From positions 999,520-1,063,519 of the forward strand of contig MU004193.1 in assembly GCA_010093605.1 (NCBI GenBank): a stretch of 64,000 bases of DNA. Direction: 5' to 3'. Source of the stretch: Lophium mytilinum (taxonomy: Eukaryota). Each line of letters opens with the position of its first letter. Positions within the stretch are counted from its first letter, which is position 1. Both the position numbers and the translations under genes were made by a program. Below the pieces are notes generated by a model that was not told the origin of the DNA, did not search any database, and was given only the letters and a program-made list of their open reading frames with translations. This document shows, in pieces, positions 637-54,514 of the stretch.

Positions 637-1402
637 GTGCTACACCGTAAAGCTTAAGCAATGGATGGCGGAGCGCTTGCCTCCAGATTTTATCAATGAA
701 TCGGGCTGTGAAGCTTGAACACCTCCTTGCTTCTATGATAGATAGGCCGCCTCCTGACGGTGCATTTCTATCATTTCTACCGTTGACACCACGGAAAACT
801 CTGCTAAAAGCCGGTTGACCGCACAGTTGAAACCGAGGCCAAAGAGCTAGGGAAGTCACGTCAAACGCAGTTCGATGCCTTGCAAAAATAAGATGATGTA
901 GTCAACAATTTCCAAAAGCGATTGACGACTGCGCTGCCATTGGAGCCCTGCTTCTCTGCCTTCGAGCCGGTGACCTACTCATATGGTTCCCAAGTGGCTC
1001 ATTACGATTCGTCATGCGGCTTGCTGAGAATGACGATAGAAGGGACAAGATTACGAGCTACTTTGAGACCGTTTTATTCATTACTTTGATGCGTCCAGCT
1101 TCACGGCCAGCGACTCGATGCCGAAGACGTGGTTCAAGATGACCTCAAATCACGTCGGATTAACGAGAAGAAATAGATAGGTGACCAAATATGTATTGAC
1201 GTGAGTAGGGTGACATGAAGAGGTGAACGTTGCGGGCAGCATCCCTGTCTGACGCTAGAGCTAAAGCGGAATCATGTTGACATTTTTCTCGCACAGCAAC
1301 CGAGCCGAACTTTTCAACCTCACCAAACATCCTCAACCACCACCGCCCACTCACGCATCTCGGTCCTACACTCCTGGGAGTCGAGTTCCTAAGGCAGCAA
1401 TA

Positions 1403-3388
1403 ATGCCTCGCAAGCAGGTCTACGGCAAACGTGCCCCGGCCATGTCGCTCTTTTCGAATATTCTTGATTCCTCGAGCCCGGAGCAATTAGATGTGAACGC
1501 ACCACGACGTCGGAGGATGCCAGGGGAGAAAAGGGCTGCGAAGAAGACAGAAACCGAGCTGAAAGATATAAAGAATGAAAGGATACAGGAGGCGGAAGTT
1601 GCGAAGCAAGAGGCGGTCAAGACACAAGGGCATGAGGATACTGCACTGGGCGATATTGAGAACCAGATGGAGAGCTTGAAACTTGAGGCTGCAGATACAG
1701 AAGCGCGATCGAAAGAGAGTTCGAAAGAGAAGAAGGCTAGGAAAGCGCTGAGAACAAAGGATGCGAATTCGAACCCGGTCGCTACGGAGGGGATCAAGCA
1801 GAAACGACGCATAAAACCTACATCTGTGATCATACCGGTGGATACAGAATCCCATAATGAGGTGCCTGTGGAGATAGCTCTAAAAGAGATGCCACTAGCA
1901 GAGCAACCTCTAGATGCCCTAGCCAAGTTGGCGATACGCCCGAAGTCGTCACATGAAAACCACCAGGTCCAAGCCCAAGCTGCAATCCTTCCTAAACAAC
2001 ATGTGGAAGACAAGTATACACATATACGGCCACTCCTCGACCTTTGCAGCGATCCTGCTGCACGACAAGCCCCAACACCGTTCTCGTCCTGGTCCTCAAA
2101 GCTCGAACCCCACTTCGACGTTTCCAAGATCGCCGAAGCCTCCTACGGCGAAGTCTACCGACTCTCCCTAAAATCCTCCATCCCCGGCTTCACAAAAGCA
2201 GACGAGTCGGTACTCAAAATAATGGCTCTAAAGCCATCACCAGAACTATGTCCAATTATCTCCGAAGATGGTACGATGTCTAAAGCCGACCTTGCTCGCC
2301 AGGGTAAAATAGGTTGGATGTCTTCGCCCGCATCCGTGCTATCGGAAGTCCAACTCCTCCAGCTCATGACGCCGATACCTGGCTTCACGAACTTCCGCGA
2401 GTTGCGGATACTCGAAGGCCGCCCAGCACCCGCATTCGTTACAGCATGGAAGGCATGGAACAAGAGCAAGATCAAGGGCGAGAAGAGTGTTTTCCCAGAC
2501 CCAAGCCGCAAAGCTAATTATGACGAAAACCAACTATGGGCCGTTGTCGAAATGCAGGACGCTGGGTGCGATCTCGAGAACATCGAGTTACGAGACATTT
2601 GGAGTGTGTGGGACGTATTCTGGGGCGTGGCGCTCGCCATCGGCAAGGGAGAAAAAGGCGTCCGCTTTGAACACCGCGATCTTCATCTCGGAAACATTTG
2701 TATCCGCTCGTGTCGATCACCATCAGAAGATGCCGAGAACACAGACCCAGCGTCCGCTCTCACTGCCCAGAAGATTCGCAATACGCACCGCAAACTCGGC
2801 TTCACGGGCCTCGAAACTACGATTATCGACTACACCCTCTCTCGCGCTGACATCGCCGACTCTCCGGCGCCTGCTGTACAGGATGTGGCCTTCCTGGACC
2901 TCGAGGCTGACCCCGCCATCTTCAGCGCCGACGCGACGTATGAGTACCAGTACGAGATATATCGCCACATGCGCTCGGCCATCTACTACGGTCGTCCACT
3001 CGCTTTCACCTCTCCAGATCCTTTAACCCTCCCCGCCCACCTCCTTAAAGCAACCACGTGGCGAGAATTCCATCCCATCACGAATCTTATCTGGCTCCAC
3101 TTCTTGCTGCATAAGCTCCTCGAAAACGTGGTCTGGCCGTCGAGCGATCCGGAGCTCGAGATCACGTTGGCGAGGGTGGACGGAAAGGTAAAGAGGGCGG
3201 AGCGGAGGGCGCGAAAGATCGAGCGAGCGTTGGTAGCATTAAGGGACATGTTAGATCCGGAGGTGCTCGGAGATCACGGAGACGAAAGGGGCGTGGCCAG
3301 TGTAGGGGAGCTAGTCGCGGTTGCGTTGGTGGAGGGGTGGTTGGGCGAGGAGGATGTGGTGGGTATTGCTGGAGAGGGCAGTTGGTGA
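1403..3388 (+). CDS. Haspin-family protein kinase
   Basis: Single-exon ORF with KIAEASYGEVY, FEHRDLHLGNICI, haspin-type TIIDYTLSRA, YQYEIYR and TNLIWLHFLL after a disordered N-terminus. Start placed at the ATG of MPRKQVYGKR. Confidence 0.9.
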   Translation: MPRKQVYGKRAPAMSLFSNILDSSSPEQLDVNAPRRRRMPGEKRAAKKTETELKDIKNERIQEAEVAKQEAVKTQGHEDTALGDIENQMESLKLEAADTEARSKESSKEKKARKALRTKDANSNPVATEGIKQKRRIKPTSVIIPVDTESHNEVPVEIALKEMPLAEQPLDALAKLAIRPKSSHENHQVQAQAAILPKQHVEDKYTHIRPLLDLCSDPAARQAPTPFSSWSSKLEPHFDVSKIAEASYGEVYRLSLKSSIPGFTKADESVLKIMALKPSPELCPIISEDGTMSKADLARQGKIGWMSSPASVLSEVQLLQLMTPIPGFTNFRELRILEGRPAPAFVTAWKAWNKSKIKGEKSVFPDPSRKANYDENQLWAVVEMQDAGCDLENIELRDIWSVWDVFWGVALAIGKGEKGVRFEHRDLHLGNICIRSCRSPSEDAENTDPASALTAQKIRNTHRKLGFTGLETTIIDYTLSRADIADSPAPAVQDVAFLDLEADPAIFSADATYEYQYEIYRHMRSAIYYGRPLAFTSPDPLTLPAHLLKATTWREFHPITNLIWLHFLLHKLLENVVWPSSDPELEITLARVDGKVKRAERRARKIERALVALRDMLDPEVLGDHGDERGVASVGELVAVALVEGWLGEEDVVGIAGEGSW

Positions 3389-26575: not shown

Positions 26576-27963
26576 GAGGTAGAGGGCGAGTGTTTCGGGA
26601 AGCAAGCATGGTCTTTTTTACCTGTTGTTCTGAGTGTCATATTCTACGAGTGCATCCGAAGTGATAATGCAGAGCCTCAACCTTGTTTTGCAGACGGATC
26701 GATGGACTCCGAGTCGGATTAACTGGTTGTCCTAGTCTATGGGGATAGTTAAGTCCGTCCGTTTGGCACACTCCTAAATCATTGAATAAAAGGGCATCTC
26801 TCGCTACCTCAGCGGTGGTAGAGATCAGTTCTGTACAAAACACACTGATTCATTTTCTGTCTATGTGAGCTCGTTTTACTGCCTAATATTATATCGGCCA
26901 CTGCACTACATATTAGGGTCTCGATACCTCGGCAGACAGCGCTCCTCCCCTTACCGCGATAGGGGCTACGAAGTATTATCTTACATGGAGGGAGCTAATA
27001 GAGGGGGGTTTTGGGATTTAATATTGCAGTTACACGAGGTGCCGGAACGTGATGATAGAGTTGGGGTCGAGTTATAGGAGCATCACGTGAAGCACACGTG
27101 CATATCATGTGATTGTGTTTCTTGCACACTTCCTCTGCCATTTTGCCTTTCGTTGTGCTGCTGTATTCAAGAAGGGACTACTGCTTCACTAGAGAGAAAT
27201 CGAGAATAGGAAATGATGTTAAAAGCTTGGGAAACGAATATGTCTGAAAGAAAAGATGTAAAGCAGGAACTGATAGATGGGAAACCAATGTCTTTTCCCA
27301 AACATGAAGTTCTCCTCGGGACACACTCCTCTTTGCTATTTGCTATGGCCACAGTCCTGTTCATCACGCGTAAATGGTTGTGCTGCTGCCTCGATGGTCA
27401 TCTGTGGCGCGCGGTGTCACCCGCTTCACTGAAGCCTGCGACAGTCTCATCAACGGGAACGCTGCTGAAGCCTTGAACCGCGAATCCTCCTCCCCTTCTG
27501 CAGCAGCCTCGCCGCTGCAGTCGGCGCATCGCACTTCCAAATGTGCAATGTGTCGAATGCGCCTGATGCCGCAGAGTGGAAGCGCCTGAGGCGGAGTCGC
27601 GAACTGGCTGGCTGGGTGCGGAGAACAGCGATCTGCCCCTTGCCGCAGCTGTCGCAAGTCGGCGGTGCCGCGTGCCCATTGTCGCGGTTTGGCGGCGGCG
27701 ATTGGGCGGGGGTGTGGCGGGTGAGGCTGAGCAGGCTTCCAGATGGTTTCGCGAGTGCGGGCTAGTTTGGGTGGTGCGTCGTGGTCGAGTGGTGGAGGTC
27801 AAGGCAGCAGCAAAATGCCCCCGAACGGCTTATAGCCACCATTTCCGCCATGACGACGCTCCAAGGCTTCTGTCGAGGGCTGCCGACTGTTTTTCCCTTT
27901 CTGTACAGTACAACTTCTTAATTGCTAGCCAGTTCTGCTTCCATTGCGCCCCTCGACTTTACC

Positions 27964-30900
27964 ATGGAGACCCTAGGCCGACTTCCCCGACGACTGACCA
28001 AGCTGTACTCCGACACCAAGACGTCCTGCGACGCCGTAATCGAGCAGGACACCACCGACACCCTCCCTGAGCTCAGCGCTTTGAACCGCAAATACCGCAT
28101 ACAGAAGAATAGGCTCATTGCCTGGGGCCTGGAATGGAGCGATAACGGCGCGTCCGACCAGGGCGACATTGACGACTCGCTGGAGCGCGCGGGCCTAGCA
28201 CAGACAGTGACGAGCGTCCTAGGCACAATAAAAGAGATATTGGATGAGGCAGAGAATATGCAGCCGCCCGCACACCCTGCCGCAGCGAAGGGCGTGTCTG
28301 AGGAGAAGAGCGGGGCGCGCCCTCAAAGTGCAGTCTCGTGGGCGGCCTCCGACAGATCGCGATATGAGGACCTAGCGAAGGACCTCACCAGCTCCATCGA
28401 CACTCTATATCAACTATCAGAGTCGCGGAGGGCATTTCGACAGAACACGCGTGGGCTGAGTCCCGGTCCTGTCGGGAAGCTTGGCATAGAAGCTTCCAAA
28501 ACCCCCTCGCCATCCGTATTCCTATCCTCCGACTACAACGCATCAGATGTCACTCTGATAAACCCCGCAACGCTGCCCCATGGCGCAAATATATCTTTCA
28601 GATCAGGACTGCCACCGAAACTCGATCCTTCGGATCTTACCTTGCCAGAAGAAGAGCCTCCTCCATACGAGAGTGTTGGAGTGACCACTTGCACAAAACT
28701 GATTGGACGTCTTCGCCAATCACACAGCTCGACAAACCCCTGGAAGACGGACGGGAGTAAAACTATCGAGACTCCCGTGCTAGTTGAATATGCAGCTTAC
28801 GATCCTACCTACCGACTCACTGGCATCTCACCATCTTTAGATCGTCTGGATTCCCTCTTGTCAATTCTCGTCAAACTAGGATCCGAACAGTCCTTCCACG
28901 GAACCCTTCAATGTGTTGGATACTTTGAAGATCCGAAGCAGCCTAGATTTGGATTGGTTTTCGAGCTGCCTTCATTCGTGTATTCCGGGCCTGTTGACTC
29001 GCACAAGCGCGTCGAAGATATGAGACCAGTCACTTTACTAAGCGTCCTTCAGTCTGGCTCGAAGTCTTTTCACAACTCGAACAGTACGACCCCTCCTCTT
29101 GAAGACCGATTTCGCTTAGGCTTCACCTTGGCCCTCACTTTCAGCAAGCTTCATGCGGAGAACATGGTTCACAAGGATGTTAACAGCAGTAACATTGTTG
29201 TTTTCCGCAAGAACAGGCCGGCCCATCAATCAAACAACAATAGAGCGCTCGATTTCGCCCTACGATCACCTGTCATTTGCTCTTTTGATCTCTTTTCTGA
29301 GTACGACATCGAACCTGCGAAGACCATGTCTTCACCGAACATCTATCGACATCCAGAAGACCCGAGATTCACAGGCAACAAGTCACAGGACTACGGTCCT
29401 CAATTTGACATGTATGGTCTTGGATTGATTCTACTTGAAATAGGGCTCTGGACTCCTCTTTCCGATCTCTGGAAGGCTAAGTATACTCTTGCTGATTTCA
29501 AACTCCGTCTAGAAGAAATATACATCCGACGACTGGCCTCCAAGTGTGGAACCGCTTACATGCAGGTCGTGCGCGACTGCTTCTTGGCTGCAGACCAACG
29601 AGCATCGGGCCTTGAGACTTTTGAAACATTCAGCCAAATTTACAATCGGATGCTCTTGCGGCTGCGCCGGTGCTGCGCCCTCGACGAATCCGATCCACTG
29701 CCTGACTGGAACCAAACAACCCTCCAGTCGGCACCTTCAGGCACTATGTTCAAGCGGAAAAGCGTCAGCCAGATCCCGACGGCAGAAACTCCAACTAGTC
29801 CTTCAGCATACAGGGACGCGAAACGGTGGGCGATTGAAAAAGGGTCCCATATTTTAGAAAGAAGCACATCACGCTCCAAACACGCATCGAAGCCATCGTA
29901 TGGCTCGTCGCCGAATCTGTCGTCGCAAAATCTGACGTCATTGTCTCGAAACAACTCCAAATCTTCCCAGCATTCTTTGTCCCTCCACAAGAAATTCTCA
30001 CAGAGCATCCAAGGCCTGAAATCACCAAAGGAACCTGAAACCGAGACTATGGACTGGCAAACGCAACACGCCCGCAATGATTCGCTCGAGGAGTCTGGCA
30101 CTCTGGTGCCGTCATCCAAGGCGTCGAGCCCCTACCTAGACCACAAGGAAGAGCTTTCCACGCTGCGCTTAGAGCGAATGGGCAACGCAGCGAGCGTCAT
30201 CCAGCGTGCATGGAGAGCACGGAACGAGTCAAAGGAATTTAAAGACTACAGGGGCAAGATCGAGGTCATCCAGAAGGTTTGGCGCGAAAGGAAGACGAGT
30301 CGATCTGGTTCCATCGCTGCTCTCGTTGAAACTAGTACCCAACATTGGCCAGAGGCAGGCCTCGGATTCCCGACCGCCGAAGCTCCTCGAGAGCCAGAAG
30401 CTCGCATAGTCGAAGCAAAGCCAAATTTCGTGAGATCCTCGATCCAGATAGACACTGACATCGAACCGGCTCCGCGACGAAAGCTTCGCGTTCATCCGGT
30501 CAAGTTCCCACCGATAATCGTGGACAACTGGCACATGACTATGCTTCCGAGACTAGAACGACTAATCGCGCGAACACTCAAGGATTCGCAGGAAACTGTC
30601 AGCATCGACCTTCTAGCTGTTGGCGAAACTCAGACTACCACCCGGCCCACTATTTTCGTGACGTGCACCAGCACGGCGAGAGTTAAGGGTGTCCTCACCC
30701 GCAAATTCAAGTACGACGACTCAGTCTTCGACCTCAAAGTCCGACGTGGAAAGATCAGGCGTTCGAAGCTCACGAGACCAAGTCGTAGAAGGAAGCAGCC
30801 TCATCGATCAATGATTAACGATGAAGCGTACTCAGCCGACATGCAAGTCATGAACCCCTTCCACCAGCAGCGCCCTCTCTGTGGTGCATCCATCGGTGCC

Positions 30901-32222
30901 TTTCGCGACGAGCATCTCCCACCCGTCTCCTATGGAGGCGTCATCATGGTAGACAACGAACCATTAGGAATGAGCGTACATCACCTCCTCGACGCCCCAA
31001 GCGAAGACGACGACAGCGAATACGGCGAAGAATACCAATCCCCCGACGAAACCACCCGCTCCAGCGCCCAAGGCAACCCCTGGCTTGCCGGCATGGGCTC
31101 GCAACCGGGCCTCGAAATCGGCGAAACAGCCATGTTCGACTTCGAGATCTCCGACGACGAAAAGAGCGACGACGACTTGGCCTACGACTCGGAAGACAAC
31201 ATCTCCGACTCCGACTTCTCCAGCTCCGAAAACGACGACGACGACGACAACCTCGACAACTCCGGCGACATCGACGGCATCAACATCGGCGAAGGCGAGG
31301 AAATCGTCATCACGCAGCCCGCCATCGACGACGTCGACGACGACTTCTTCCCCGAGCCCGAAGACCGCGACGACGACCACATCTCCTCGCACAAGCTCGG
31401 CCACGTGCACGCCTCATCCGGCATCCGGCGCTGGAACCGCGGCGGCATCGTGCACGAGATCGACTGGGCGCTGCTGAAGCTAGATAAGGACCGCCTGCAG
31501 CCCTACAACCTCATCCAGGGCGGCCGCCGCTTCTGCCCCTCCGCCGCGCCGCCGGAGATGTGCCCGAACCTCGCGGAGCCCGTGTGCCGCCGCCACTTCA
31601 AGCCCGAGGAGGACGAGTACCCGAGCCAGGTCGCGGCCGCGGACGGGCTCGGCGGGCTGGGCGTGCACTGCTTCGGACGCACGTCGGGGCTGAAGGGCGG
31701 CGTCGTGGGCGCCGCGATGAGTAGCGTGCGGATCTATAAGCGGAAGACTTTCTCGCGGAGCTGGCATGTTGTTGGCGGGTTTGGAGGTACGCGCTCACTT
31801 CCCTACCCTTATCTTATCTATCAAATTTAGTACTAACATTTTGCGTAGTTGGCGGCGACTCCGGCGCCTGGGTCATCGAGAACAACGACGGCCGCGTGTG
31901 CGGCCACGTGCTGGCGTGGTGCGCGCGCAACCGCCTCGCGTACATCTGCCCCATGCAGGTGCTGCTCGAGGATATCAAGCGCACCCTCGGCGCGCGCCGC
32001 ATCTGCCTGCCTGGCTCGGAGGACAGCAGCGGGCCGCAGGTTGCGGGAGATGTGAGGGAGGTTATTCTGGGGCGGTCGCCGGTGGAGTTTGAGCTGCCGG
32101 ATCTGCAGCGGCTGAGGCTGGTGGGGAAGGAGGGCGAGAAGGAGATGGCGCCGGTGTTGAGGAGTCGGGTGGGTTTGGGGGTTGTGGGGGTGGGTGGGGA
32201 GAGGGTGAGGCAGGTGGCGTGA
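27964..32222 (+). CDS. HeLo(-like) domain + protein kinase-like domain + IQ motifs + C-terminal trypsin-like serine protease
   Basis: N-terminal RKYRIQKNRLIAWGLEW. Kinase-like VLVEY, CVGYFEDP, VHKDVNSSNI, YRHPE, DMYGLGLILLEIGLW. Protease-like CGASIG, VHHLL, EIDWALL, GRTSG and, after intron 31788-31848, GGDSGAWV. Confidence 0.8.
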
Positions 32223-45145: not shown

Positions 45146-46180
45146 ATGACTACCCCCACCATCCCAGCAGCAACCCGCGTTCTCACGACCGCCGAACTAC
45201 TCGAAAACATCCTGCATCACCTACCTCCAGCATCTCTCCTTCGTGCGCAAGGATGCTGCCGCCTATTCCACGCCCTCATCTCAACCTCCCCGTTGCTCCA
45301 ATCAGATCTCTTCTTCCGCTATACTGCACAATCTTCAAAGTCCAACTCAACGACAAATTCCTTCGCACTCAATCCTATACTGGTCTCCGCCTTCCCTGAA
45401 TGGTTCCAGAGCGCACTAGACGAGTCCAAGCATCAGCCCAGCCCTTACCAGGTGTACCGGGAAAATTTACCGCCTGGAATAGATGGGCGGGACGTGCTAA
45501 AAGAATCAGAGCATATATTTCACCGCTTACCCTGGACTACGAGACGCGAAGAGTTCAAGAGCAAAGAAGCGAGCTGGCGAAGGATGCTGATATCGAATCC
45601 GCCGATTCGGAAGATCGAGTTTCGGAAGGAGAATTCGTCTGAGACAGGGACGAGTTTCGAGGTAGCGATGGTCACGATACCTAGAGAAGGGGAGAACTGT
45701 GAGTCAGATGCGTCGTTGAAGACTGTGAATGGGCCATTGGCGTACTCGACTAGCGAGGCCGAGGCTGTGCTTCGAGGTGAAAGGGACGTCGAGGAAGATA
45801 TGGCGACGAGAGATGAGCGGTGGCGGAGGTATGTTGAGATGAGAAGTGCGCTTTATGAACCGCAGGGGGAAGAGGAGGTCTTGCAGGACGAGGGCTTGAG
45901 AATGGGGGTTCTTTATGATTATGTTGAGGAAGCGGTTGGGTCGATGAAGGTCAAACGGCCCTATAGCGTGACTTTCGAGTTCGAGGTCTGGAAAAGAGGA
46001 AGATTGTCCCCTTCACTTCTTGGAAGGGACGACGCGAGTAATGAAACTATTCTCCGGGTTACTCTGTCGTACTTTCACGGATGCCTTTACGAGGAGGATG
46101 TGCCGATGCACGATTTCCACAGTGACGGATTTCAAAAGGTAGTTGTAGGGCCGTGGTTTAGGCGAAGAGGTGGAGATTGA
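45146..46180 (+). CDS. F-box domain protein
   Basis: N-terminal RVLTTAELLENILHHLPPASLLRAQGCCRLFHALISTSPLLQSDLFF, then LNPIL and ASWRRMLISNPP. Confidence 0.85.
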   Translation: MTTPTIPAATRVLTTAELLENILHHLPPASLLRAQGCCRLFHALISTSPLLQSDLFFRYTAQSSKSNSTTNSFALNPILVSAFPEWFQSALDESKHQPSPYQVYRENLPPGIDGRDVLKESEHIFHRLPWTTRREEFKSKEASWRRMLISNPPIRKIEFRKENSSETGTSFEVAMVTIPREGENCESDASLKTVNGPLAYSTSEAEAVLRGERDVEEDMATRDERWRRYVEMRSALYEPQGEEEVLQDEGLRMGVLYDYVEEAVGSMKVKRPYSVTFEFEVWKRGRLSPSLLGRDDASNETILRVTLSYFHGCLYEEDVPMHDFHSDGFQKVVVGPWFRRRGGD

Positions 46181-46606: not shown

Positions 46607-49600
46607 CTACATCGACAGTAGAGATTTCATATCCTCGGAGAAAGAACGCGATTAGCGTACATTGATTTACAGCAGTGACAAAACTCACAATAACATTTCT
46701 AAACTGATCGTCTTCCGATTCGGTTTTACTGCCATCCCATCCAAGCTGAGCAAGGTACAACTTCTTCTCCTGCTTTGTTTGGATAAACTACGCAGTGCAA
46801 AGTAAGCCAATATTACTCGTACATACATGGAGCGGTTCATACGCATACCTGCTCTACAGTGTGCTCGTCTAGGTATCGCACGATAGTGACCTTTTTCTCC
46901 TGGCCCAGCCTCATGACTCGTTCAATCGCCTGCTTCTCAACGGAAGGGTTCCACTGCGGCTCAAGAATATGGACACGATTGGCTACGGTGAGATTCAAGC
47001 CGACTGCACCCGTTCCAAGCGTCATGAGGAGTGCAGGAATAGTTGGATCTTGCTGGAAGCGCAGGATCTGGGAGCGCCGGTCGGGAAGTGTCATTGAGCC
47101 GTCGACGACGCAGACCGGGATGTTGTAGGCGGTTAGATATGATGCGGCGAGCTTAATGGACGTCTTCCATGAAGAGAAAACGATGCTGGCGCGTAAAAGC
47201 TAAGTATCAGGCAGATAGAGCGGAAGAGGTACGTACCATTTTTCTTCTTGGTGATGCATGATATTGTGCACGAGAGCTTCCAATTTGGAGCTGTAGCTCT
47301 TCAGGTTTGATGGCGCGTCGTCCGATTTTGGTAGCTGCTGTTGCTCGCCTCGTGGTGATGCGCAAATGGTACCGCATACCACGCAGCGAATTCGAGATTT
47401 GTGTATTTTCTCGGCTCGACATAGACACTCTTGACAAAGGAGGTGCGAGCAGTGTAGAATGACTCCGGAGCTGGCTGATTCCTGGTCACCTACAGAGCTT
47501 ACGTCGCATGAGCAGTACGAGCATACTGCTTGGTAATCTTGTTCGAGTAGAGAAAAACTTTCATCCTTAGGAGAATCAGCCTGCTCTGGGTTAACGCAGA
47601 GACCGGAGTTGCAGAATGTTCGAAGCTGCATAATAGCACGGAAAAGGCCACTCGATGCGTCCGTGAGGTTTCTTCTCTCAATCGCTCGATCTATGGCCTG
47701 TCGGTGGCTTTCTCCGATACGGCAATACTGGCTTCGTTCTTCTTCTGTGAGTTGTACAAGCTCAATGCGTGAGTCATGCTCGGCAAGGTTCAGCAGGTCT
47801 TTCGTGCGCCGTATGCAGATGCACTGCAGGAGATCTCGCAGTCGTTGAAAACCTGCAGCATTGTGCTTTTCGACGGGCCCGGCGATATGGCTGTAGAAGT
47901 CGGATGGCCTGTCTAAGTGCGGCACACGGAGGAAACGGACTAAAGCGCCCAGGTCATTGAGCACATTCTGGATTGGCGTTCCAGTAAGGCACCACCGATA
48001 TCTGGCTGAAAGGGCTACCACAGCGCGAAATTGTTTAGTTTGCTGGTGCCGAATGGAGTGAGCTATGAAAAGGTAAGTCGAAGTCTTCTAGAAATGGCCT
48101 GGCCCCAAACCTTCATCAATGATGACGCGAAACCAATGAATGCCGTGGAGGTTGCTATTTCGAGTTGAATCTGCTATGAGTGTAGCATAAGTTGTCAAGA
48201 CAATATCCGAGTCCAGAATTTCGCTTTCGGTAGCTTTAGATGTTCCGTGATATTTTGTGCATTTAAGTAACCGTGGAGCAACGTGTCTAGTCTGATCAGT
48301 AGATTCTATCCAGGATACAGCTTTACTACTTACTTTGAGACTTCTTCCATCCACCCATCGATGAGCACTAGTAATAAAAAAGTCAGCCGGATTCCAAACC
48401 CAGGTCAAGTTACTTACGGACAGCAGGGCATATGACAAGGGTAGCCTTGGTTCTCTTAATCGGGCCCACTACTTCTCTTCTACATAAATCCTCATTTGAA
48501 AATCGACGTGCTCGATCCAATGTCGTCGCAATGGCTGAGATCATCGTCAGGGTTTTTCCGAGTCCCATCTCATCGGCTATGATGCCTCCAAAGTCTTCGG
48601 GTGGTCTTTGCGGTTTTCTACATCCAACTACAGCATTTTCGTAACTATGAGCGGTATTAGGAAAGGAACGTAGACTTCGTGGTTGGGAAAAATCCTCACT
48701 ACTTGCGATTTCGAGAGTCGACGCACTGTTTGAAAAGTGAAAAGCGCTCGGAAATATGTGGTGATTCTCGATGTGCAATGAAATCAAGAGCTTCCCTTTG
48801 GTGCCTTATGGAATACATCAGTTCGAACCATTTGCGAACGAAACATTTTTGTCCACTTACGGCTTTAATACAGTCGTGATGGCAGTCATATCCACATCCA
48901 GGTTTACTAGATCTCCCATATGATCAAGATTGGCTAGAACAGTGCTAACTATGTCAACAGACAGATCGCCCACAGAGCTGGATTCAGGAATTGGTGCACT
49001 CATTTGCGAGCCGAAATTGCTGATTGATGCGAAGCTGATTTCATGAGGGTTATCATATGGGATGGAGCTGTCAAGAAAGTCGGGTGCTTGAAGGAAAAGG
49101 CCTGCGTCGGAGAGTATTCTGCCAACATCTGTGCTGTTGGATCTTGGCCCAAAGAAATATATGTCGATATCCAGACAGACAGATTTTCCAAGGGTCATAA
49201 AAGAGCGAATCTTCGTTGCCCACTCGGCTGTAGCGACATACACGGTGTATCTCACTGTGGATCGATGGTCTAGCTCCTGAAGAGCTTTTGATGTTTGCGT
49301 TTTGAGGATCGCAATGTCTGTACCATTGTTCGTTTGAAGCATATGGATCCGTTTCATCGCGATTTGAAGTTGAAAGTAATTACTTTTTGATACATCAGCA
49401 TCAGAATGAAGAGATGCAATGCTCGGGTCATCAAGAAATTGAGTTTTAAGCCCACAGATCTATGTAATCTTAGTAACAGCATCGAAATAAGACGTAGGTG
49501 ATATATATACCATGCCAAAGCATACCTCATCAGCTGGTCCTGGAATACTGGGCAATAGTGTGCAGGATTCCGCATTGTCGAAATCTACTAGTGGCCAGGG

Positions 49601-49771
49601 CAACGCATTGAGTGAAGGTTCGGATGAAGTATTATTGTTAATATATGCTGGAGGTACGTCTTGTATGAACTGAGCTGAGCTGATGTCGTACGCGATAGTC
49701 GGAACCTGGCGTTTTGCAGGCCTTCTGTCCTCGCAATAATCCTCGATGAAGCTTCTCTTAGCGGAGAACAT
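46607..49771 (-). CDS. SNF2-family helicase with RING finger (Rad5/Rad16-like), multi-exon
   Basis: GGIIADEMGLGKT, DIVLTTY, WFRVIIDE|AH, RWCLTGTPIQN, RING-like CSYC...CSHLLCQEC...CVVC, SSKLEAL, GAVGLNLTVANRVHILEPQWNPSVEKQAI.RV.RLGQ. Ends approximate. Confidence 0.9.
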
Positions 49772-50289
49772 TGTCGCAGCGAGAGTGCTCTCAAGGAATG
49801 GAGAGAATTTCTGACATGACAAAACGGAAGAACAAAATGCACGAACGAGGCTGACTAGGCTGGTAGAAGTCGTGGGGTATTTAGAATACTAAACGCCTGT
49901 TTGTGGGAGCTGCTGCGCGGCAGTACTCTAAGAGAGCCTCACGAGCACCAGCTTTTGCAAGACTGCGGCCACTTGGTTGGCAAGGCACACCGGTAACTTG
50001 AAAAATGAAGACCGATTGGTTGTTTCCAAGGCTGAACTTGAACCCAGCCACGCCAGCTGATCAAGAGGTGGTGGCTGAGGCACGGTGCGCTTTTGCCACG
50101 TTGATCTTGGCTGCATACTGTGTAAACTCTATAGTCGTGAGAACCTTGAGGGAGCCTCGTGGGAGCCTCTGCGCAACAGTCGCCTCAAGATGCTACAAGG
50201 CAGGCCCACAGTCTTATTGTCCGATAACTCTGACCCTCCTGCAGTAAATTCGCGCTTGAGCCCCCTCGAGAGTATCTTTTCGCGTTATC

Positions 50290-53200
50290 ATGGCGACCAC
50301 CGTTCAGTCAGCCGTGGGCACTGCCCAGTTCAATCGAGTTCTCAGCGACTTCAAGCACGAGCTGTCTCAGGATGAAGTCGATGACTTCAAGTTTATCAAT
50401 TCCGACGACCTCAAAAAGGCTGTGCACCGACTGCAAGAGCAGCAAAAGTCGGAGAAACGCATGCAGAATCTGCGCCGATTGAGTTCCTTTCTTGAAGCCA
50501 TGGACCAGTTTGATAAAGTTGTTTCCGTTTTCTTGAACGCTACCGACTATTTGGGCTTTATTTGGGTAAGTTTGTAGGAGCAATTTCTAAACTCCCTTCT
50601 GACGATACCGTAGGGTCCCGCAAAGTTCATGCTGTTGGTAATTGCTCCGGTAGTCTTACTCTCCTTCATATCAGACGTACTGAGAACTGCTAGGTTGCTG
50701 GCTCCTACTCAGAAGCCTTGAACACATTACTCGATGCCTACCAGGAAATTGGAGATCACATACCTCTACTGGAACAATATGAGTCCCTCATCCACAACAG
50801 TCTATATCTACAAGATATCGTCGGGTTAATCTACAAAGACATCTTGAATTTCCACCGCAAGGCAATGAAACACTTTCGGCAGCGAGGTTTGTTGTGTATT
50901 AGTTCGTAAATGATCATACTCTATACTTACGCATTTACAGCTTGGAAAAAACTCTTCCATGCGACGTGGAGAACGTTTCGCACGGACTTTGGCGCCATCA
51001 TCTCCAACCTACAGTCTCATCGGAGGCTTCTCGACAGCCAGGCTATCTTCTTAGGAGTCCAAGAGACGATAAAGGCAATGGAAGAGCTTCATGAAACGAG
51101 AAGGGTTCTTGATGATGAATGCAAGAGAAGGCAAGATGAGGATAGCAAGCGTCGACAACTTGCCGTGATTTCATGGTTGTCTGCTGCAGATAGTGCGAGC
51201 GACCACGAGGATGCGTTTGCAGTCCATGAAGATGAGCCCAATAGTGGGTTGTGGCTGTTTCAACACAACTCCGTCAAAGACTGGATCGATCCGTACTCAC
51301 TATCCGAGCCTTTGCTGTGGATCAATGGGAATCCCGGCGCTGGTATGGCACGTTAACACCCTCTTCAGAATTACACTGATCTCCAAACTCCTAGGTAAAA
51401 CAATTCTAGCTTCAGCTCTTATTGAGGAATGCCGACGTCAGCCACACTCCGCCGCGGCATTTTTCTATTGCAAGCATGGAGATCCCGCCCGAGACAACTT
51501 CATCGGATTCGCACGAAGTTTTATTTTCCAGCTCACAAAGTTGAACTCCTCGCTGCTGCCTTTTGTGCTCGAAAAAGAATCAAGCAGTGGCACAGACTCG
51601 TTGCGGTCATCTAAAATCGCGAAAGAAATCTTGGCGGTTGCTGTTGAGTCCTTTGATGACTTAACTATAGTCATTGACGGCCTGGACGAATGTGTTAAGT
51701 CTCAAAAAGCTGAGATAGTCTCCTGGATACGCTCGGTAGTTGCCTCGGCGGAAACAGATGATTCCAGAAACCTGCGGTGTTGCTTCCTTAGTCAAGACGA
51801 CAACGACACCGGGAGATTGCTCAAAGGTTTACCCACGTTCAAGATCACCGCCGAACATAACAATCATGACATATCGCGTTTCTGTCGCCGCCGAGCAAAT
51901 GAGATTGGGCAGAACTTTGGAGTGTTACCCCAGGATGTCCAAAATTTGGCGGAGTGTGTCGCCGGAAAGGCTGATGGTAAGGCCTTCTAGGAATCCTTGG
52001 AGATGTTCTGACATAATTTAGGGATGTTTCTCTACGCTAAGCTAGTAATGGACAATTTGGATAGCCAGGTCTCTAAGGCGGCACTGAAGCAAGAAATGAA
52101 AAAAATCCCGCCAACTTTGAACCAAGTGTAAGTACTTTGAGGTCGTAAAGTTCTGCAATGGTATCTAATCATTGCAGATACCATCGAATCAGGCACCGAA
52201 TAATAGAGGAATCTAGTCCTTCAGAACAGCAAGTCGCAAAGACACTGCTCAGCTGGCTTCTCTGTGCAAAACGCCCACTCAAATGGCACGAAATTCAGGG
52301 AGCCATGTCCCTGGATTTAGATGGCAATTCGTTCGACTGTGAAAGAAGACTTGTGAGGGATATTAAACATTTCTGCGGGTCTTTGGTTGAGGTTCGAAGA
52401 GGAGGTGCGATCTGTTTTGTCCACCTGACTGCAAAATAGTAAGCCATACGACATGTATATTATCAGAGCGGACTACTGACTCGTGCTCTTTCAGTTTTCT
52501 TCAGGATGAGCCAGCACTTCCGAAGCAGCTCGAGAAGCTCAACTTAACTCGCCTCTGCTTTTCTCATTTATCACTCGATTCGCACGCATCTGATATTACC
52601 CAAGACTCGATTCGTGGATACATTCTCCGTGGCGAATATGCTTTCACCGAATATGCTGTCGTCCACGCCTTCGATCATTTGCTTGATGTGCTTTCGGAAG
52701 GAGGTGATATTCTTACTTTGAACTATGCAGCTCTCGGCATGAACTTGCGAAAGTTCGTTGAAAGGCGCGTCAGTGCACCCCAGAAGCGGGCGTCAGCCGT
52801 CAAAATCATCGACAACAAACTTCAAGTTTTCAAGGATGAGGACTTCTTCAACGGTCTAAAACACGCCATTGTTTACCAAAAAGAATGCGAGGATAATTCC
52901 CCAAAAAAAATCAATGAGGAACCTGTATTGACTCTTCTCCCCCAACTAGCGCGTGTGCGCTTCGTGCTGGAGAAGATGATAATCTCTGGTTCCACTCTCA
53001 AGCTCGATTCTCTCTATAGCCAAAACCTTTTCAAATGTTCGGAACCACGATGTGAATCGTTCCATGATGGCTTTCCCACACAACAGAACCGCGACAAGCA
53101 TCGTGACCAGCACGAGCGTATCTATCTTTGCTCATTCTTAGGCTGTACATCGTCAATGATCGGGTACAGCACCGCATCGGGTCTTAAACAACACGAACAA

Positions 53201-54514
53201 GAGTACCACCAAGAATTACGTGACGGAAATAGCTTCCCTTGGCATGGCACCCTCGAGAAACTGGACATCGCCGTGGAAATTGAGAACGGCAATTATGCTG
53301 CGTTTGAGCTGTGGTTATCTCAGTGGAAAGATACAATTCCAAATCATCAAATTACCAACAGCATTTCGCATCAAAACCCCCTATATCTGGCAAGTTTGCA
53401 CCGCCAGAACAGAATGCTGAAAGAACTACTTGGTAAAGTTTCACCAAAATTGGACATGGGTCAACATATCACTGCTATGAAAGCTGCTATTATGCTTGCT
53501 ATTATGCTTGGAAACGAGGAGGGATTTCGAATACTCGTCAGACACGCGACTACGTTGCCAGAGAGGGAAATCTACAGACTTTTGACGAGCGCTCTTCATC
53601 GGGGCGAAGACAACATTGCCCGAGAACTACTGATATATCCCTCATCACCCTTTCTCCAAGCAGACGGAATGCCAAGACAGGCGTCATATCTGAATCTCAC
53701 TATTCGACATGGGCGCTACGAAATTCTCCAATATATCCTTGAAAACTTCCAGATTGACCCCGATCAAATAGATGATAAGGGTCGTACCTCGTTGATCGCG
53801 GCCGCAGAGTTTGACAAGACCGAAATGGCAACATACCTCGTCACAAACCGAAAATGCAAAAAGTGGACTACGAATAAGAAAGGCGATACTCCGCTCTCCA
53901 TCGCTGGTCGCGAAGGCCACGAGGAGTTCATTTCATCGATATATCACGAGGAGAGAAATGAGCCACAAGTCCAGGAATGGCTACGAACAGCCCAGCTCCG
54001 TAATGCTACCCGCGATGGATCTGATCAAAAGGTTAAAGAGCTACTTAATGACAGCTCCCTGCACGTTGATGAGATGGACCGTCAAGGCCGCTCGCCGTGG
54101 TTGTGGGCAGTAGAAAATAGCCATGACCGCGTCTTAGAGGTGCTTCTTAGGAGGTCCGATATTGAATTTCTTAGAAAGGGACCCTGGGCCCGGTCTGACG
54201 TGTCTAGGATAGAAAACAGAAAAGACGGCCCTGGTGCGCTCCATGTTACCGCTTTGGCCGGGCATGATTCAACAATGCGAGTGCTACTCCAAAGTGGCAA
54301 ATTTGATGGCGAACTTGACCGACACTGCCCGTTCTTTTTGAAAGGTCCGATAGGATCGGCGGTTTCAGGAACGCCTCTAGGTATCGCAAATGAATGCGGC
54401 CACAAGGATACGGTAAGGATCATAGAGGAATACAAGGTTTCTTTGGATAAGAAGGACAAAGCATCGCCAACCAGCACGCTTCTACCGATAACAGAAGTAC
54501 GATCAACGGAGTGA
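50290..54514 (+). CDS. Fungal NLR: N-terminal helical domain, NACHT NTPase, two C2H2 zinc fingers, ankyrin repeats
   Basis: Walker A LWINGNPGA|GKT, FFYC, Walker B IVIDGLDEC, GMFLYAKL, RPLKWHEIQ. C2H2 fingers CSEPRC..H...H and CSFLGC..H....H. Ankyrin-type GRTSLIAA, GDTPLSIA, GRSPWLWA, GTPLGIA. Exons splice in frame. Confidence 0.9.

Follow-up and report, generated by a model that had tools for sequence, protein, structure and literature searches.

Results

Two divergent genes in the Lophium window

The window analysed here is a stretch of 64,000 nucleotides from Lophium mytilinum, in which two intact genes stand head to head. The first, on the minus strand, is an SNF2-RING helicase gene (46607-49771) of 10 exons and 896 aa, with its ATG at 49771 and its stop codon ending at 46607. 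The second, on the plus strand, is a NACHT-C2H2-ankyrin NLR gene (50290-54514) of 8 exons and 1287 aa, with its ATG at 50290 and its stop codon ending at 54514. The spacer between the two ATGs (49772-50289, no strand) measures 518 bp; both 5' UTRs lie in it, as does the divergent promoter that the genes share. The first-pass annotation, which had described two genes diverging from about 520 bp, was thus right in its coordinates and gene anatomy.

The helicase exons (minus strand, in order of translation) are 49771-49511, 49459-48861, 48804-48700, 48644-48418, 48367-48334, 48286-48111, 48062-47237, 47185-46849, 46787-46689 and 46633-46607, and their translation is exactly the deposited protein P0001 (896 aa). 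The NLR exons (plus strand) are 50290-50565, 50614-50637, 50694-50886, 50941-51342, 51395-51976, 52022-52127, 52178-52438 and 52495-54514; the product of this model is identical to the deposited P0121 (1287 aa). Transcript contigs came from one public run labelled 'RNA?', which was taken as RNA-derived only from its intron-skipping contigs. Fifteen introns with GT..AG ends are absent from these contigs, comprising all seven of the NLR gene and eight of the nine of the helicase gene. The ninth, helicase intron 1 (49460-49510), was deduced from two adjoining pieces of one RNA contig, and helicase intron 3 was placed at 48645-48699 from RNA contigs and P0001. Since the contigs skip introns, both genes are transcribed and spliced. 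The helicase RNA contig extends into the spacer to at least 49990 and the 4174-nt NLR contig is inferred by arithmetic to start at about 50171, so that some 180 bp of the spacer lie outside both long RNA contigs. Across the inter-gene gaps the most frequent 8-mer, picked post hoc, is GAGGCTGA, found in 8 of 13, only just above the maximum of 7 reached by mononucleotide shuffles. The other genes around the pair in the window are ordinary. One ORF of the same window bears HeLo.

The helicase protein

P0001 carries an N-terminal HIRAN-like domain (49019-49459, minus strand; residues ~88-234), which is the well-folded part of exon 2. It is followed by the SNF2 ATPase N-lobe (SNF2-rel_dom, residues 288-620, Pfam E 6.5e-63), which spans introns and whose window coordinates, 47605-48803 on the minus strand, were calculated from the exon table. 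A C3HC4 RING (47371-47523, minus strand; residues 648-698; a weak zf-RING_5 match) lies between the two helicase lobes, the second of which, Helicase_C (46903-47286, minus strand; residues 727-837; Pfam E 9.8e-19), spans one intron. The Pfam RING score is under the cut-off (16.5 bits against 27.9). With SNF2-rel_dom and Helicase_C, an intact Walker A and DEAH, and a RING inserted between the lobes, the protein belongs to the SNF2 family and is Rad5/16-like; the N-terminal HIRAN of the Rad5/HLTF architecture is represented by the HIRAN-like fold. Because this predicted DNA-end-binding domain is present, we regard the helicase as a Rad5/HLTF-type enzyme. HIRAN was not recognised in a Pfam search of P0001, and an Atlas search with the HIRAN-like exon returned a top cluster of unnamed Ascomycota proteins, with HIRAN-bearing clusters only at 0.83 and 0.76, which serves as a lead only. 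The HIRAN-like domain had not been recognised in the first-pass annotation.

The same annotation had left it to be checked whether the helicase is separate from core Rad5. The Lophium contig that bears the pair also encodes a second paralogue, P0043, and P0001 resembles solved Rad5 only modestly in sequence (181 bits). Judged from copy number, distribution and this similarity, the helicase is a multi-copy Rad5/HLTF paralogue and is indeed separate from core Rad5. The candidate assignment as core Rad5 orthologue was rejected on the same grounds: a multi-copy and patchy family, the paralogue on the same contig, two old clades, and 181 bits to solved Rad5.

The NLR protein

All domains of P0121 lie on the plus strand. 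An all-helical N-terminal domain, DUF7708 (50479-51044; residues 64-199; Pfam E 1.1e-14), precedes a NACHT-type NTPase (NPHP3_N, 51243-51792; residues 266-431; Pfam E 2e-32), a winged-helix domain (GPIID_WHD, 52224-52510; residues 544-620; Pfam E 5.8e-12), two C2H2-like zinc fingers (53036-53209; ligands C796, C801, H817, H821 and C827, C832, H848, H853) and ankyrin repeats (53690-54313; residues ~1014-1221; Pfam Ank_2 E 1.8e-26, in five stretches). The NTPase carries the Walker A motif GNPGAGKT and the Walker B motif DGLDEC, both invariant or nearly so among relatives; the Pfam NACHT model itself scores 25.5 bits with a cut-off of 26.7. The NTPase with its Walker motifs, the N-terminal DUF7708 and the C-terminal Ank together make P0121 a fungal NLR of the STAND class.

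The AlphaFold model of the N-domain is all alpha with a pLDDT of 89, the helical part covering residues 8-261. DUF7708 is found in 43/43 NLR relatives and Goodbye (PF17109) in seven of the 43 (best E 6.6e-7), with no Pfam Goodbye match in P0121 itself. DUF7708 may be related to Goodbye, a canonical N-terminal class of fungal NLRs. A Foldseek search with the N-domain gave no match at E <= 1e-3, and the structure search gave none to a known death-inducing fold; when the N-domain was compared by hhalign with the ORF of the window that bears HeLo, the probability was 0.1. A literature search on DUF7708 found nothing.

Recurrence of the pair

For the two proteins, 120 of 440 and 120 of 300 matches were listed as relatives. 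Of the 15 species pairs looked at, 14, the Lophium control among them, have helicase and NLR relatives with GenBank accessions that follow directly on each other, and in the fifteenth, Wilcoxina, the accessions are two apart; this is an indirect measure of adjacency, checked on one control, and it agrees with the cases in which locus tags are at hand. Neighbouring locus tags were found in four further species (Fusarium solani, Glutinoglossum, Monosporascus and Diplodia seriata), and in Polyplosphaeria both proteins are encoded on one contig of 16,672 bp. The paired species span five classes of Pezizomycotina. Clohesyomyces, Neocucurbitaria and Diplodia corticola each have an NLR orthologue with no helicase partner among the 120 helicase matches listed, the Corynespora helicase has no matching NLR among the matches listed, and 13 species occur in both lists with no same-contig match among the matches listed. 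With lists of this length, such gaps are weak evidence against the pairing.

The helicase is carried by 16 of 79 metagenome NLR loci; where at least 3 kb of upstream DNA is present, it adjoins 13/18 family-type NLRs as against 0/12 other NACHT loci (Fisher p 8.7e-5), and the orientation is head-to-head in 12 of the 14 distinct positive loci. The other five of the 18 family-type loci show no helicase within the available contig DNA. The 12 upstream ORFs of the helicase-less loci L021, L025, L026 and L035 have no Pfam family in common, and helicase-less locus L073 has no upstream ORF of at least 120 aa clear of the NLR 5' end. When 15 pair loci and the window were compared, no further ORF family was common to them, and the pairing is therefore not block synteny.

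Fungi pack their genes densely, and genes diverging across 0.5-kb spacers are often seen in their genomes. On a chance reading, the helicase and NLR genes would be neighbours that have their promoter region in common but are otherwise unconnected in function. The present pairing is more than chance because it recurs in other genomes: it repeats in five classes and on unrelated contigs with different flanks, and the two gene trees mirror each other. We consider mere chance adjacency barely credible.

Gene trees

Trees of the helicase and the NLR from 21 pairs have 14 of 18 splits in common and disagree only at unsupported forks. Their patristic distances correlate at r = 0.978, a value reached by none of 2000 permutations. 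The departures from the species tree are common to both: the Dothideomycetes fall into two groups and Fusarium is nested within the Xylariales. Two old clades of the pair coexist in Lentithecium, Dendryphion and Clohesyomyces. The first-pass annotation had proposed a two-component module, to be checked by synteny and co-phylogeny; the adjacency repeats in many genomes and metagenome contigs, the trees mirror each other, and the recurrence and the mirrored trees together support functional coupling well. The annotation had further cast the module as an immune one, with the NLR as putative sensor and the helicase as putative effector or guarded target, and such roles would be one form of the coupling.

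The joint departures from the species tree, the patchy distribution and flanks that differ at every locus could also be read as signs of a selfish or horizontally moving cassette, for instance an addiction-type pair, that persists by spreading as a unit. However, no transposase, repeat or third gene accompanies the pair, in the window it is surrounded by ordinary genes, and an old duplication of the pair, both clades of which are kept in the three genera named above, explains the trees equally. A selfish cassette is accordingly a very improbable explanation.

Conserved motifs of the two proteins

The GLGKT and DEAH motifs of the SNF2 N-lobe are at least 90% conserved across 21 relatives, and all 8 Cys/His ligand columns of the RING are conserved to the same level of at least 90% (alignment A3). 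Since the two genes have been passed on, copied and relocated together, and their catalytic motifs are all conserved, the two products are almost certainly functionally coupled in one pathway.

One form that such coupling might take is for the RING ligase to be mainly a dedicated keeper of the NLR, expressed together with it from the common promoter and ubiquitinating it to a safe level, or the reverse, with the helicase part secondary. E3 ligases control NLR levels in plants and animals, and conserved RING ligands, a tight divergent promoter and co-inheritance of the genes would all suit this arrangement. However, the HIRAN-like fold and the SNF2 ATPase motifs, which a pure ligase would not need, are equally strictly conserved, and we regard a keeper role as quite improbable.

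In the NLR, the two fingers follow the spacing C-x4-C-x15-H-x3/4-H, to be set beside the C-x2-4-C-x12-H-x3-5-H of the C2H2 class, and all eight ligands are invariant in 24/24 aligned relatives. Pfam does not call C2H2 in P0121 (E up to 0.1); its zf-C2H2 model matches 27 of 43 NLR relatives, which bear additional fingers. The region is highly conserved, not hypervariable, and several positions near the ligands are also invariant across classes. In many relatives the C-terminal domain consists of zinc fingers only, the ankyrin tail varying in presence, and single genomes hold several members of the NLR family.

The invariance of the ligands and nearby positions across classes suggests one conserved ligand and not an arms race. 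This would be expected of a housekeeping or regulatory module in which the NACHT-zinc-finger protein regulates by binding DNA under the control of a ligand, on the lines of bacterial STAND regulators such as MalT, and the Rad5-like enzyme is its dedicated remodeller or damage-tolerance factor. Together the pair would control some specialised response in DNA repair, replication stress or chromatin. The many relatives with zinc fingers as their sole C-terminal domain, and a partner with the architecture of a replication-fork remodeller and all its catalytic motifs conserved, are likewise consistent with such a module. However, the family has a patchy distribution and several copies, and single genomes hold both of its old clades, a pattern usual for the NLR repertoires of fungi but not for core regulators; the N-domain may be Goodbye-related, and the ankyrin tail comes and goes. 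We judge a housekeeping function to be unlikely.

Discussion

A putative surveillance module of the Pezizomycotina

We somewhat favour the view that the Pezizomycotina possess a conserved, co-inherited two-gene module, present in one copy at the Lophium locus and most likely dedicated to DNA-directed surveillance. Its Rad5/HLTF paralogue would combine a HIRAN-like domain predicted to bind DNA 3' ends, an SNF2 translocase acting on double-strand DNA and an embedded RING E3 ligase. Within this proposal, a DNA-directed role is likely, and for an immune or conflict role the chances are about even. The module would watch over DNA: the Rad5-like enzyme would engage unusual DNA ends or replication intermediates, whether foreign or damaged, and the NLR would be coupled to this engagement, either by reading the state of the enzyme in the manner of a guard or by binding nucleic acid through its fingers and recruiting the enzyme. 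The NLR would then oligomerise and signal through its N-domain.

A bolder version, possible and rather doubtful, is that the pair forms a pan-Pezizomycotina innate immune system whose targets are foreign DNAs that replicate, for example DNA mycoviruses, plasmids, and rolling-circle or giant transposons. In it an NLR would be hard-wired to a fork remodeller of the Rad5/HLTF type. The HIRAN-SNF2-RING enzyme would catch free 3' ends of the invading DNA or intermediates of its replication, and the NACHT-zinc-finger protein would respond by oligomerising into a signal that ends in cell death or silencing. If so, eukaryotes would have their first counterpart of the STAND-plus-helicase defence of bacteria, and the NLR would be the first whose partner is a DNA-handling enzyme.

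To our knowledge, the function of fungal NLRs is mostly unknown, and the few that have a known partner all come from allorecognition. With a pairing that holds in five classes of filamentous ascomycetes, a whole NLR family gains a concrete, testable partner, and C-terminal zinc fingers, non-canonical domains for which published work offers no explanation, are tied to a predicted DNA-end-binding translocase/ligase. The pairing also indicates that enzymes of the Rad5/HLTF type have taken on work beyond classical damage tolerance. Human HLTF has been reported to restrict viruses, and a defensive module would fit that report. Should the function be regulatory instead of immune, the pair would still represent a conserved pathway that is new, in fungi among which are many crop pathogens and industrial species.

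Comparison with known systems

The architecture of HIRAN, SNF2 translocase and embedded RING is common to Rad5 of yeasts, human HLTF and the present helicase. The latter differs in its 896 aa, in a HIRAN unseen by Pfam, in being multi-copy and patchy, and in its tie to an NLR gene; we know of no description of such linkage for Rad5 or HLTF.

In NWD2/HET-S and PLP-1/SEC-9, a fungal NLR gene lies beside the gene of its working partner. The present pair is like them in its linked partner and in the order of a canonical N-domain class, NACHT and a C-terminal binding domain, whereas its partner is a large DNA enzyme and not a pore-former or SNARE, and its pairing is kept across classes instead of forming one species' allorecognition locus. 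A blastp comparison of helicase and NLR gave a best E of 0.91 with no N-terminal match, and no amyloid or other motif is common to the two proteins. The likeness to nwd2/het-S drawn in the first-pass annotation therefore does not hold in detail.

The plant pairs RPS4/RRS1 and RGA4/RGA5 are likewise divergent, with a short shared promoter, and co-evolving. Both partners are NLRs in these head-to-head plant pairs, whereas the present pair contains only one.

Among Sordariales NLRs, PMC12258605 lists zinc fingers in 57, of which 34 are of the C2H2 type, mostly C-terminal, and considers them possible integrated decoys or nucleic-acid binders. The present family is very likely among these zinc-finger NLRs. 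In the main text of that paper, the terms SNF2, helicase and neighbo(u)r do not occur, and the clusters treated are NLR-NLR only. Our literature search, which included PMC13449251, PMC11138114 and PMC5870968, found no description of the helicase-NLR pair.

In a PADLOC search, the helicase core matches the models of ZorD (Zorya), DpdE (Dpd) and DrmD (DISARM), with a best E of 2.9e-56. The alignment is limited to the generic SNF2 core; the present pair comes without a nuclease, and those systems come without HIRAN and RING. None of the partner genes of Zorya, Dpd or DISARM is in the window, and the NLR matched no Avs model. Membership in the ZorD, DrmD or DpdE systems was rejected, given the core-only alignment and the lack of partner genes. 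With bacterial SNF2 helicases and the STAND NTPases of Avs, the likeness is thus one of logic and not of membership: a STAND switch is joined to a DNA motor, and if the fungal module is defensive, this theme would extend to eukaryotes.

A divergent, spliced gene pair

In Lophium mytilinum, a Dothideomycete of the order Mytilinidiales (lineage looked up), ORF scans and the sequence define two multi-exon genes that run in opposite directions from one common spacer. The SNF2-RING helicase gene extends on the minus strand from its ATG at 49771 to 46607, and its exon set translates exactly to the deposited 896-aa protein, P0001; the NACHT-C2H2-ankyrin NLR gene extends on the plus strand from its ATG at 50290 to 54514, its model being that of the deposited 1287-aa protein, P0121. 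The start codons are separated by 518 bp, confirming the spacer of about 520 bp that the first-pass annotation had placed between divergent ATGs at these positions.

Transcription evidence came from one public run covering the stretch, labelled 'RNA?' and kept as contigs. Its contigs skip all seven introns of the NLR gene (7/7) and eight introns of the helicase gene at GT..AG ends, with helicase intron 1 deduced from two adjoining pieces of a single contig. It follows that the contigs derive from RNA and that the annotated splicing of both genes is correct. Alternative choices of GT donor and AG acceptor on the minus strand (window 49511-49525 and 48700-48726) also give an open frame; the RNA contigs back only the deposited model. 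The helicase RNA contig reaches to at least 49990, and by arithmetic the 5' end of the 4174-nt NLR contig would lie near 50171; the end of a contig is no proof of a transcript end.

The neighbours of the pair are an F-box protein gene directly downstream of the helicase gene (45146-46180, plus strand), a mitochondrial carrier and unannotated ORFs. By ORF clustering, the F-box gene is not kept beside the pair in other loci. At a distance of 15 kb, another cell-death-type gene is represented by a 1302-aa open frame (27922-31830, plus strand), in which a HeLo domain (E 1.2e-7) and DUF7580 are accompanied by a weak match to protein kinases. The haspin-like kinase gene at 1265-3388 (plus strand, E 4.7e-42) is ordinary and unconnected with the pair.

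The helicase is related to, but separate from, core Rad5/Rad16

Pfam recognizes SNF2-rel_dom (E 6.5e-63) and Helicase_C (E 9.8e-19) in P0001, with a sub-threshold RING, and in an alignment of 21 helicase relatives conservation is 90% or higher in the GxGK, DEAH, TGTPIQN and QAxGRxxRxGQ motifs and at each of the eight RING ligands. Exon 2 (199 aa) had no match in a Pfam scan; it is conserved among the relatives, with the signature G..LS....FLQ.P.......Y.NPH, and in its AlphaFold model residues 1-140 contain stretches with pLDDT 76-95. When this model was compared with the PDB using Foldseek, the HLTF HIRAN domain filled the top 13 rows (E 2.5e-4 to 8.7e-3) and Kluyveromyces lactis Rad5 came next; on this basis we assign the helicase a HIRAN-like + SNF2 + RING architecture. 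By sequence, too, Rad5 is the closest solved relative, both for the single protein (E 2.4e-52) and for the family profile (E 6.3e-106, next match 5e-68); the profile comparison gave no sequence-level alignment of the HIRAN part with Rad5. A search with the HIRAN-like exon among 1.84 billion proteins returned 323 representative clusters at E <= 1e-3, many of them short fragments. One representative, the 1399-aa P0261, matches the exon in 19 separate stretches (best, query 129-163), as though the segment with Y.NPH were repeated.

The possibility that the helicase is simply the core Rad5/Rad16 protein was rejected, as the family is multi-copy (another Lophium paralogue, P0043, shares the 1.8-Mb contig of P0001), is patchily distributed in two old clades, and has a HIRAN domain that has diverged past Pfam recognition. 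P0043 is an 875-aa protein with 41% identity over the queried exon, located on the 1,795,902-bp contig and, as far as seen, outside the window.

Domain organization of the NLR

P0121 consists, according to Pfam, of DUF7708 (64-199), NPHP3_N/NACHT (266-431), a winged helix (544-620) and ankyrin repeats. The segment joining the winged helix to the ankyrins contains two C-x4-C-x15-H-x3/4-H units, which are not scored by Pfam zf-C2H2 in P0121 and whose eight ligands are all invariant in 24/24 NLR relatives; in 27 of 43 relatives, zf-C2H2 picks up additional fingers. Many relatives are only ~1000 aa long and have C-termini with fingers only, without ankyrins. The N-terminal domain is modeled with confidence (pLDDT 89) as a bundle of helices only, from which an 80-residue helix runs to the NACHT, and structure comparison gave no specific match for it. 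The Pfam domain Goodbye, described as one of the canonical N-terminal classes in fungal NLRs (PMC12258605), was also matched in 7/43 relatives. Some relatives carry other N-termini on the NACHT-winged helix-finger body, namely a DUF676 lipase-like domain (P0132), HET (P0253) and Goodbye plus DUF7708 (P0157), a pattern that looks like N-domain swapping.

The pair recurs across fungal genomes and metagenomes

The best 120 of 440 matches from the helicase search were compared with those from the NLR searches (22 matches, and the best 120 of 300). By eye, 34 species were common to both tables among the matches listed, and in 21 of these the helicase and NLR lay on equal-sized contigs. The 13 species with no same-contig match among those listed (Corynespora, Lasiodiplodia, Bathelium, Periconia digitata, Pyrenophora tritici-repentis, Aspergillus karnatakaensis, Rhypophila, Setomelanomma, Triangularia, Cercophora, Tricladium, Glonium and Apiospora phragmitis) say little, because the matches are the best part only and there are several paralogues per genome.

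Adjacency in named genomes was judged from the order of accessions and locus tags, not from DNA. GenBank accessions, compared in 15 of the 21 species, were consecutive in 14: Lophium (the known-adjacent control), Mytilinidion, Lentithecium, Dendryphion, Hypoxylon sp. NC1633, Xylaria curta, Talaromyces proteolyticus, Massarina eburnea, Fusarium oxysporum f. sp. vasinfectum, Trichophaea hybrida, Nemania sp. FL0031, Xylariaceae sp. FL1651, Xylaria flabelliformis and Hypoxylon crocopeplum. In Wilcoxina they are two apart. Positional locus tags are adjacent in four further species, F. solani (MRS44_018308/09), Glutinoglossum (FGG08_005599/600), Monosporascus (DL768_007170/71) and Diplodia seriata (SLS54_008955/56), and both Polyplosphaeria proteins come from one 16,672-bp contig. 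The pair species span what we take, beyond four taxa whose lineages were looked up, to be five classes: Dothideomycetes, Sordariomycetes, Eurotiomycetes, Geoglossomycetes and Pezizomycetes.

Scanning metagenome contigs with the NLR alignment yielded 79 loci, 16 of which have a helicase relative by tblastn with P0001. Loci with at least 3 kb upstream of the first NLR match were considered informative, and those with a match reaching the N-terminal domain (query start <= 108) family-type; L049 (93% positional identity to L043) and L044 (hit coordinates identical to those of L040, yet a positional identity of only 53%, and hence maybe no duplicate) were left out. The helicase was present at 13/18 informative family-type loci versus 0/12 NACHT-only loci (Fisher p 8.7e-5), or 14/19 versus 0/13 with L049 and L044 restored. 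Outside this set fall L014 (2.5 kb upstream, positive) and L059 (a 61-bit helicase-C match only). The 14 distinct positive loci comprise 12 head-to-head pairs, one tandem pair (L017) and one convergent pair (L024); the HIRAN-like region was matched too in most positive loci. Together with the consecutive accessions, these counts show that the adjacency repeats in other genomes.

Five family-type loci lack the helicase. The upstream ORFs of four (L021, L025, L026, L035) have nothing in common, and L073 has no upstream ORF of scannable length. The OTT_1508-like deaminase family is matched (E 3.1e-12) by an ORF of L035 (3727-4710, plus strand) located ~4.3 kb upstream of the NLR. Clustering of all ORFs of at least 70 aa from 15 pair loci and 26 kb of the window revealed no third gene family common to many pair loci: widespread families were pieces of the two genes and smaller clusters were antisense ORFs within them, so that the flanks vary from locus to locus and the conservation is not block synteny.

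On one strand or the other, the 8-mer GAGGCTGA (window 49847-49854) is present in the spacer between the two genes at 8/13 pair loci, including the metagenome loci L006, L007, L014, L023, L037, L043 and L051; its density is 0.46 per kb in these spacers and 0.065 per kb in the remainder of those loci. Chosen post hoc and barely above shuffles, it is a candidate shared promoter element only.

Helicase and NLR trees match

Trees were built for 21 helicases and their 21 NLR neighbours, the latter cut to 900 residues with ankyrins removed, using a quick IQ-TREE search (LG+G4, SH-aLRT support only). The two trees have 14/18 splits in common, with all four conflicts at unsupported forks, and patristic distances correlate at r = 0.978, a value reached by 0/2000 label permutations. 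This correlation is partly expected from relatedness; what weighs more is that the two trees deviate alike from the species tree. In each, Lophium, Mytilinidion, Dendryphion, Lentithecium and Diplodia group with Glutinoglossum and Talaromyces in one clade, that of the ankyrin-tailed NLRs, and Massarina and Polyplosphaeria, also Pleosporales, fall in the second with Pezizomycetes, Xylariales and Fusarium. Co-phylogeny of the two genes is accordingly borne out.

The Fusarium pairs are nested within Xylariales in both trees, reflecting either co-transfer of the pair or old paralogy. Co-transfer is a possible explanation of the wider pattern as well; NLRs of both clades are present in Lentithecium, Dendryphion and Clohesyomyces, and the simplest reading of the trees is that the whole pair was duplicated long ago and copies were then lost.

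What the pair may do

The first-pass annotation had proposed a two-component immune module directed at nucleic acid or chromatin. The two-component part is strengthened by co-inheritance, co-duplication and matching trees; taken with two enzymes whose catalytic motifs are intact and divergent transcription from at most 518 bp, these indicate that the helicase and NLR almost certainly act in one pathway. DNA is probably its object, as the HIRAN-like domain, the DNA translocase and the invariant NLR fingers all suggest. The immune part is evenly balanced. The pair might defend against foreign replicating DNA, or might guard a repair enzyme targeted by invaders. The alternative is a regulated repair or chromatin response. 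Defence is favoured by the architecture, which is that of an NLR, by the relation of the N-domain to Goodbye and by a distribution that is patchy and multi-copy; the strongly conserved finger region and an N-domain that matches no known death fold speak against it. The direction of signalling between NLR and helicase cannot be told from sequence.

In openly available full texts we found no account of a fungal NLR whose partner gene is of the SNF2, Rad5 or HLTF type; an earlier description may exist in subscription journals. In the closest paper, 34 Sordariales NLRs are reported to carry C2H2 fingers, most of them at the C-terminus; it covers NLR-NLR clusters only, SNF2 and helicase being absent from its main text (PMC12258605). 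As for the partner enzyme, the HIRAN-like, SNF2 and RING architecture is common to Rad5, HLTF and the Lophium helicase.
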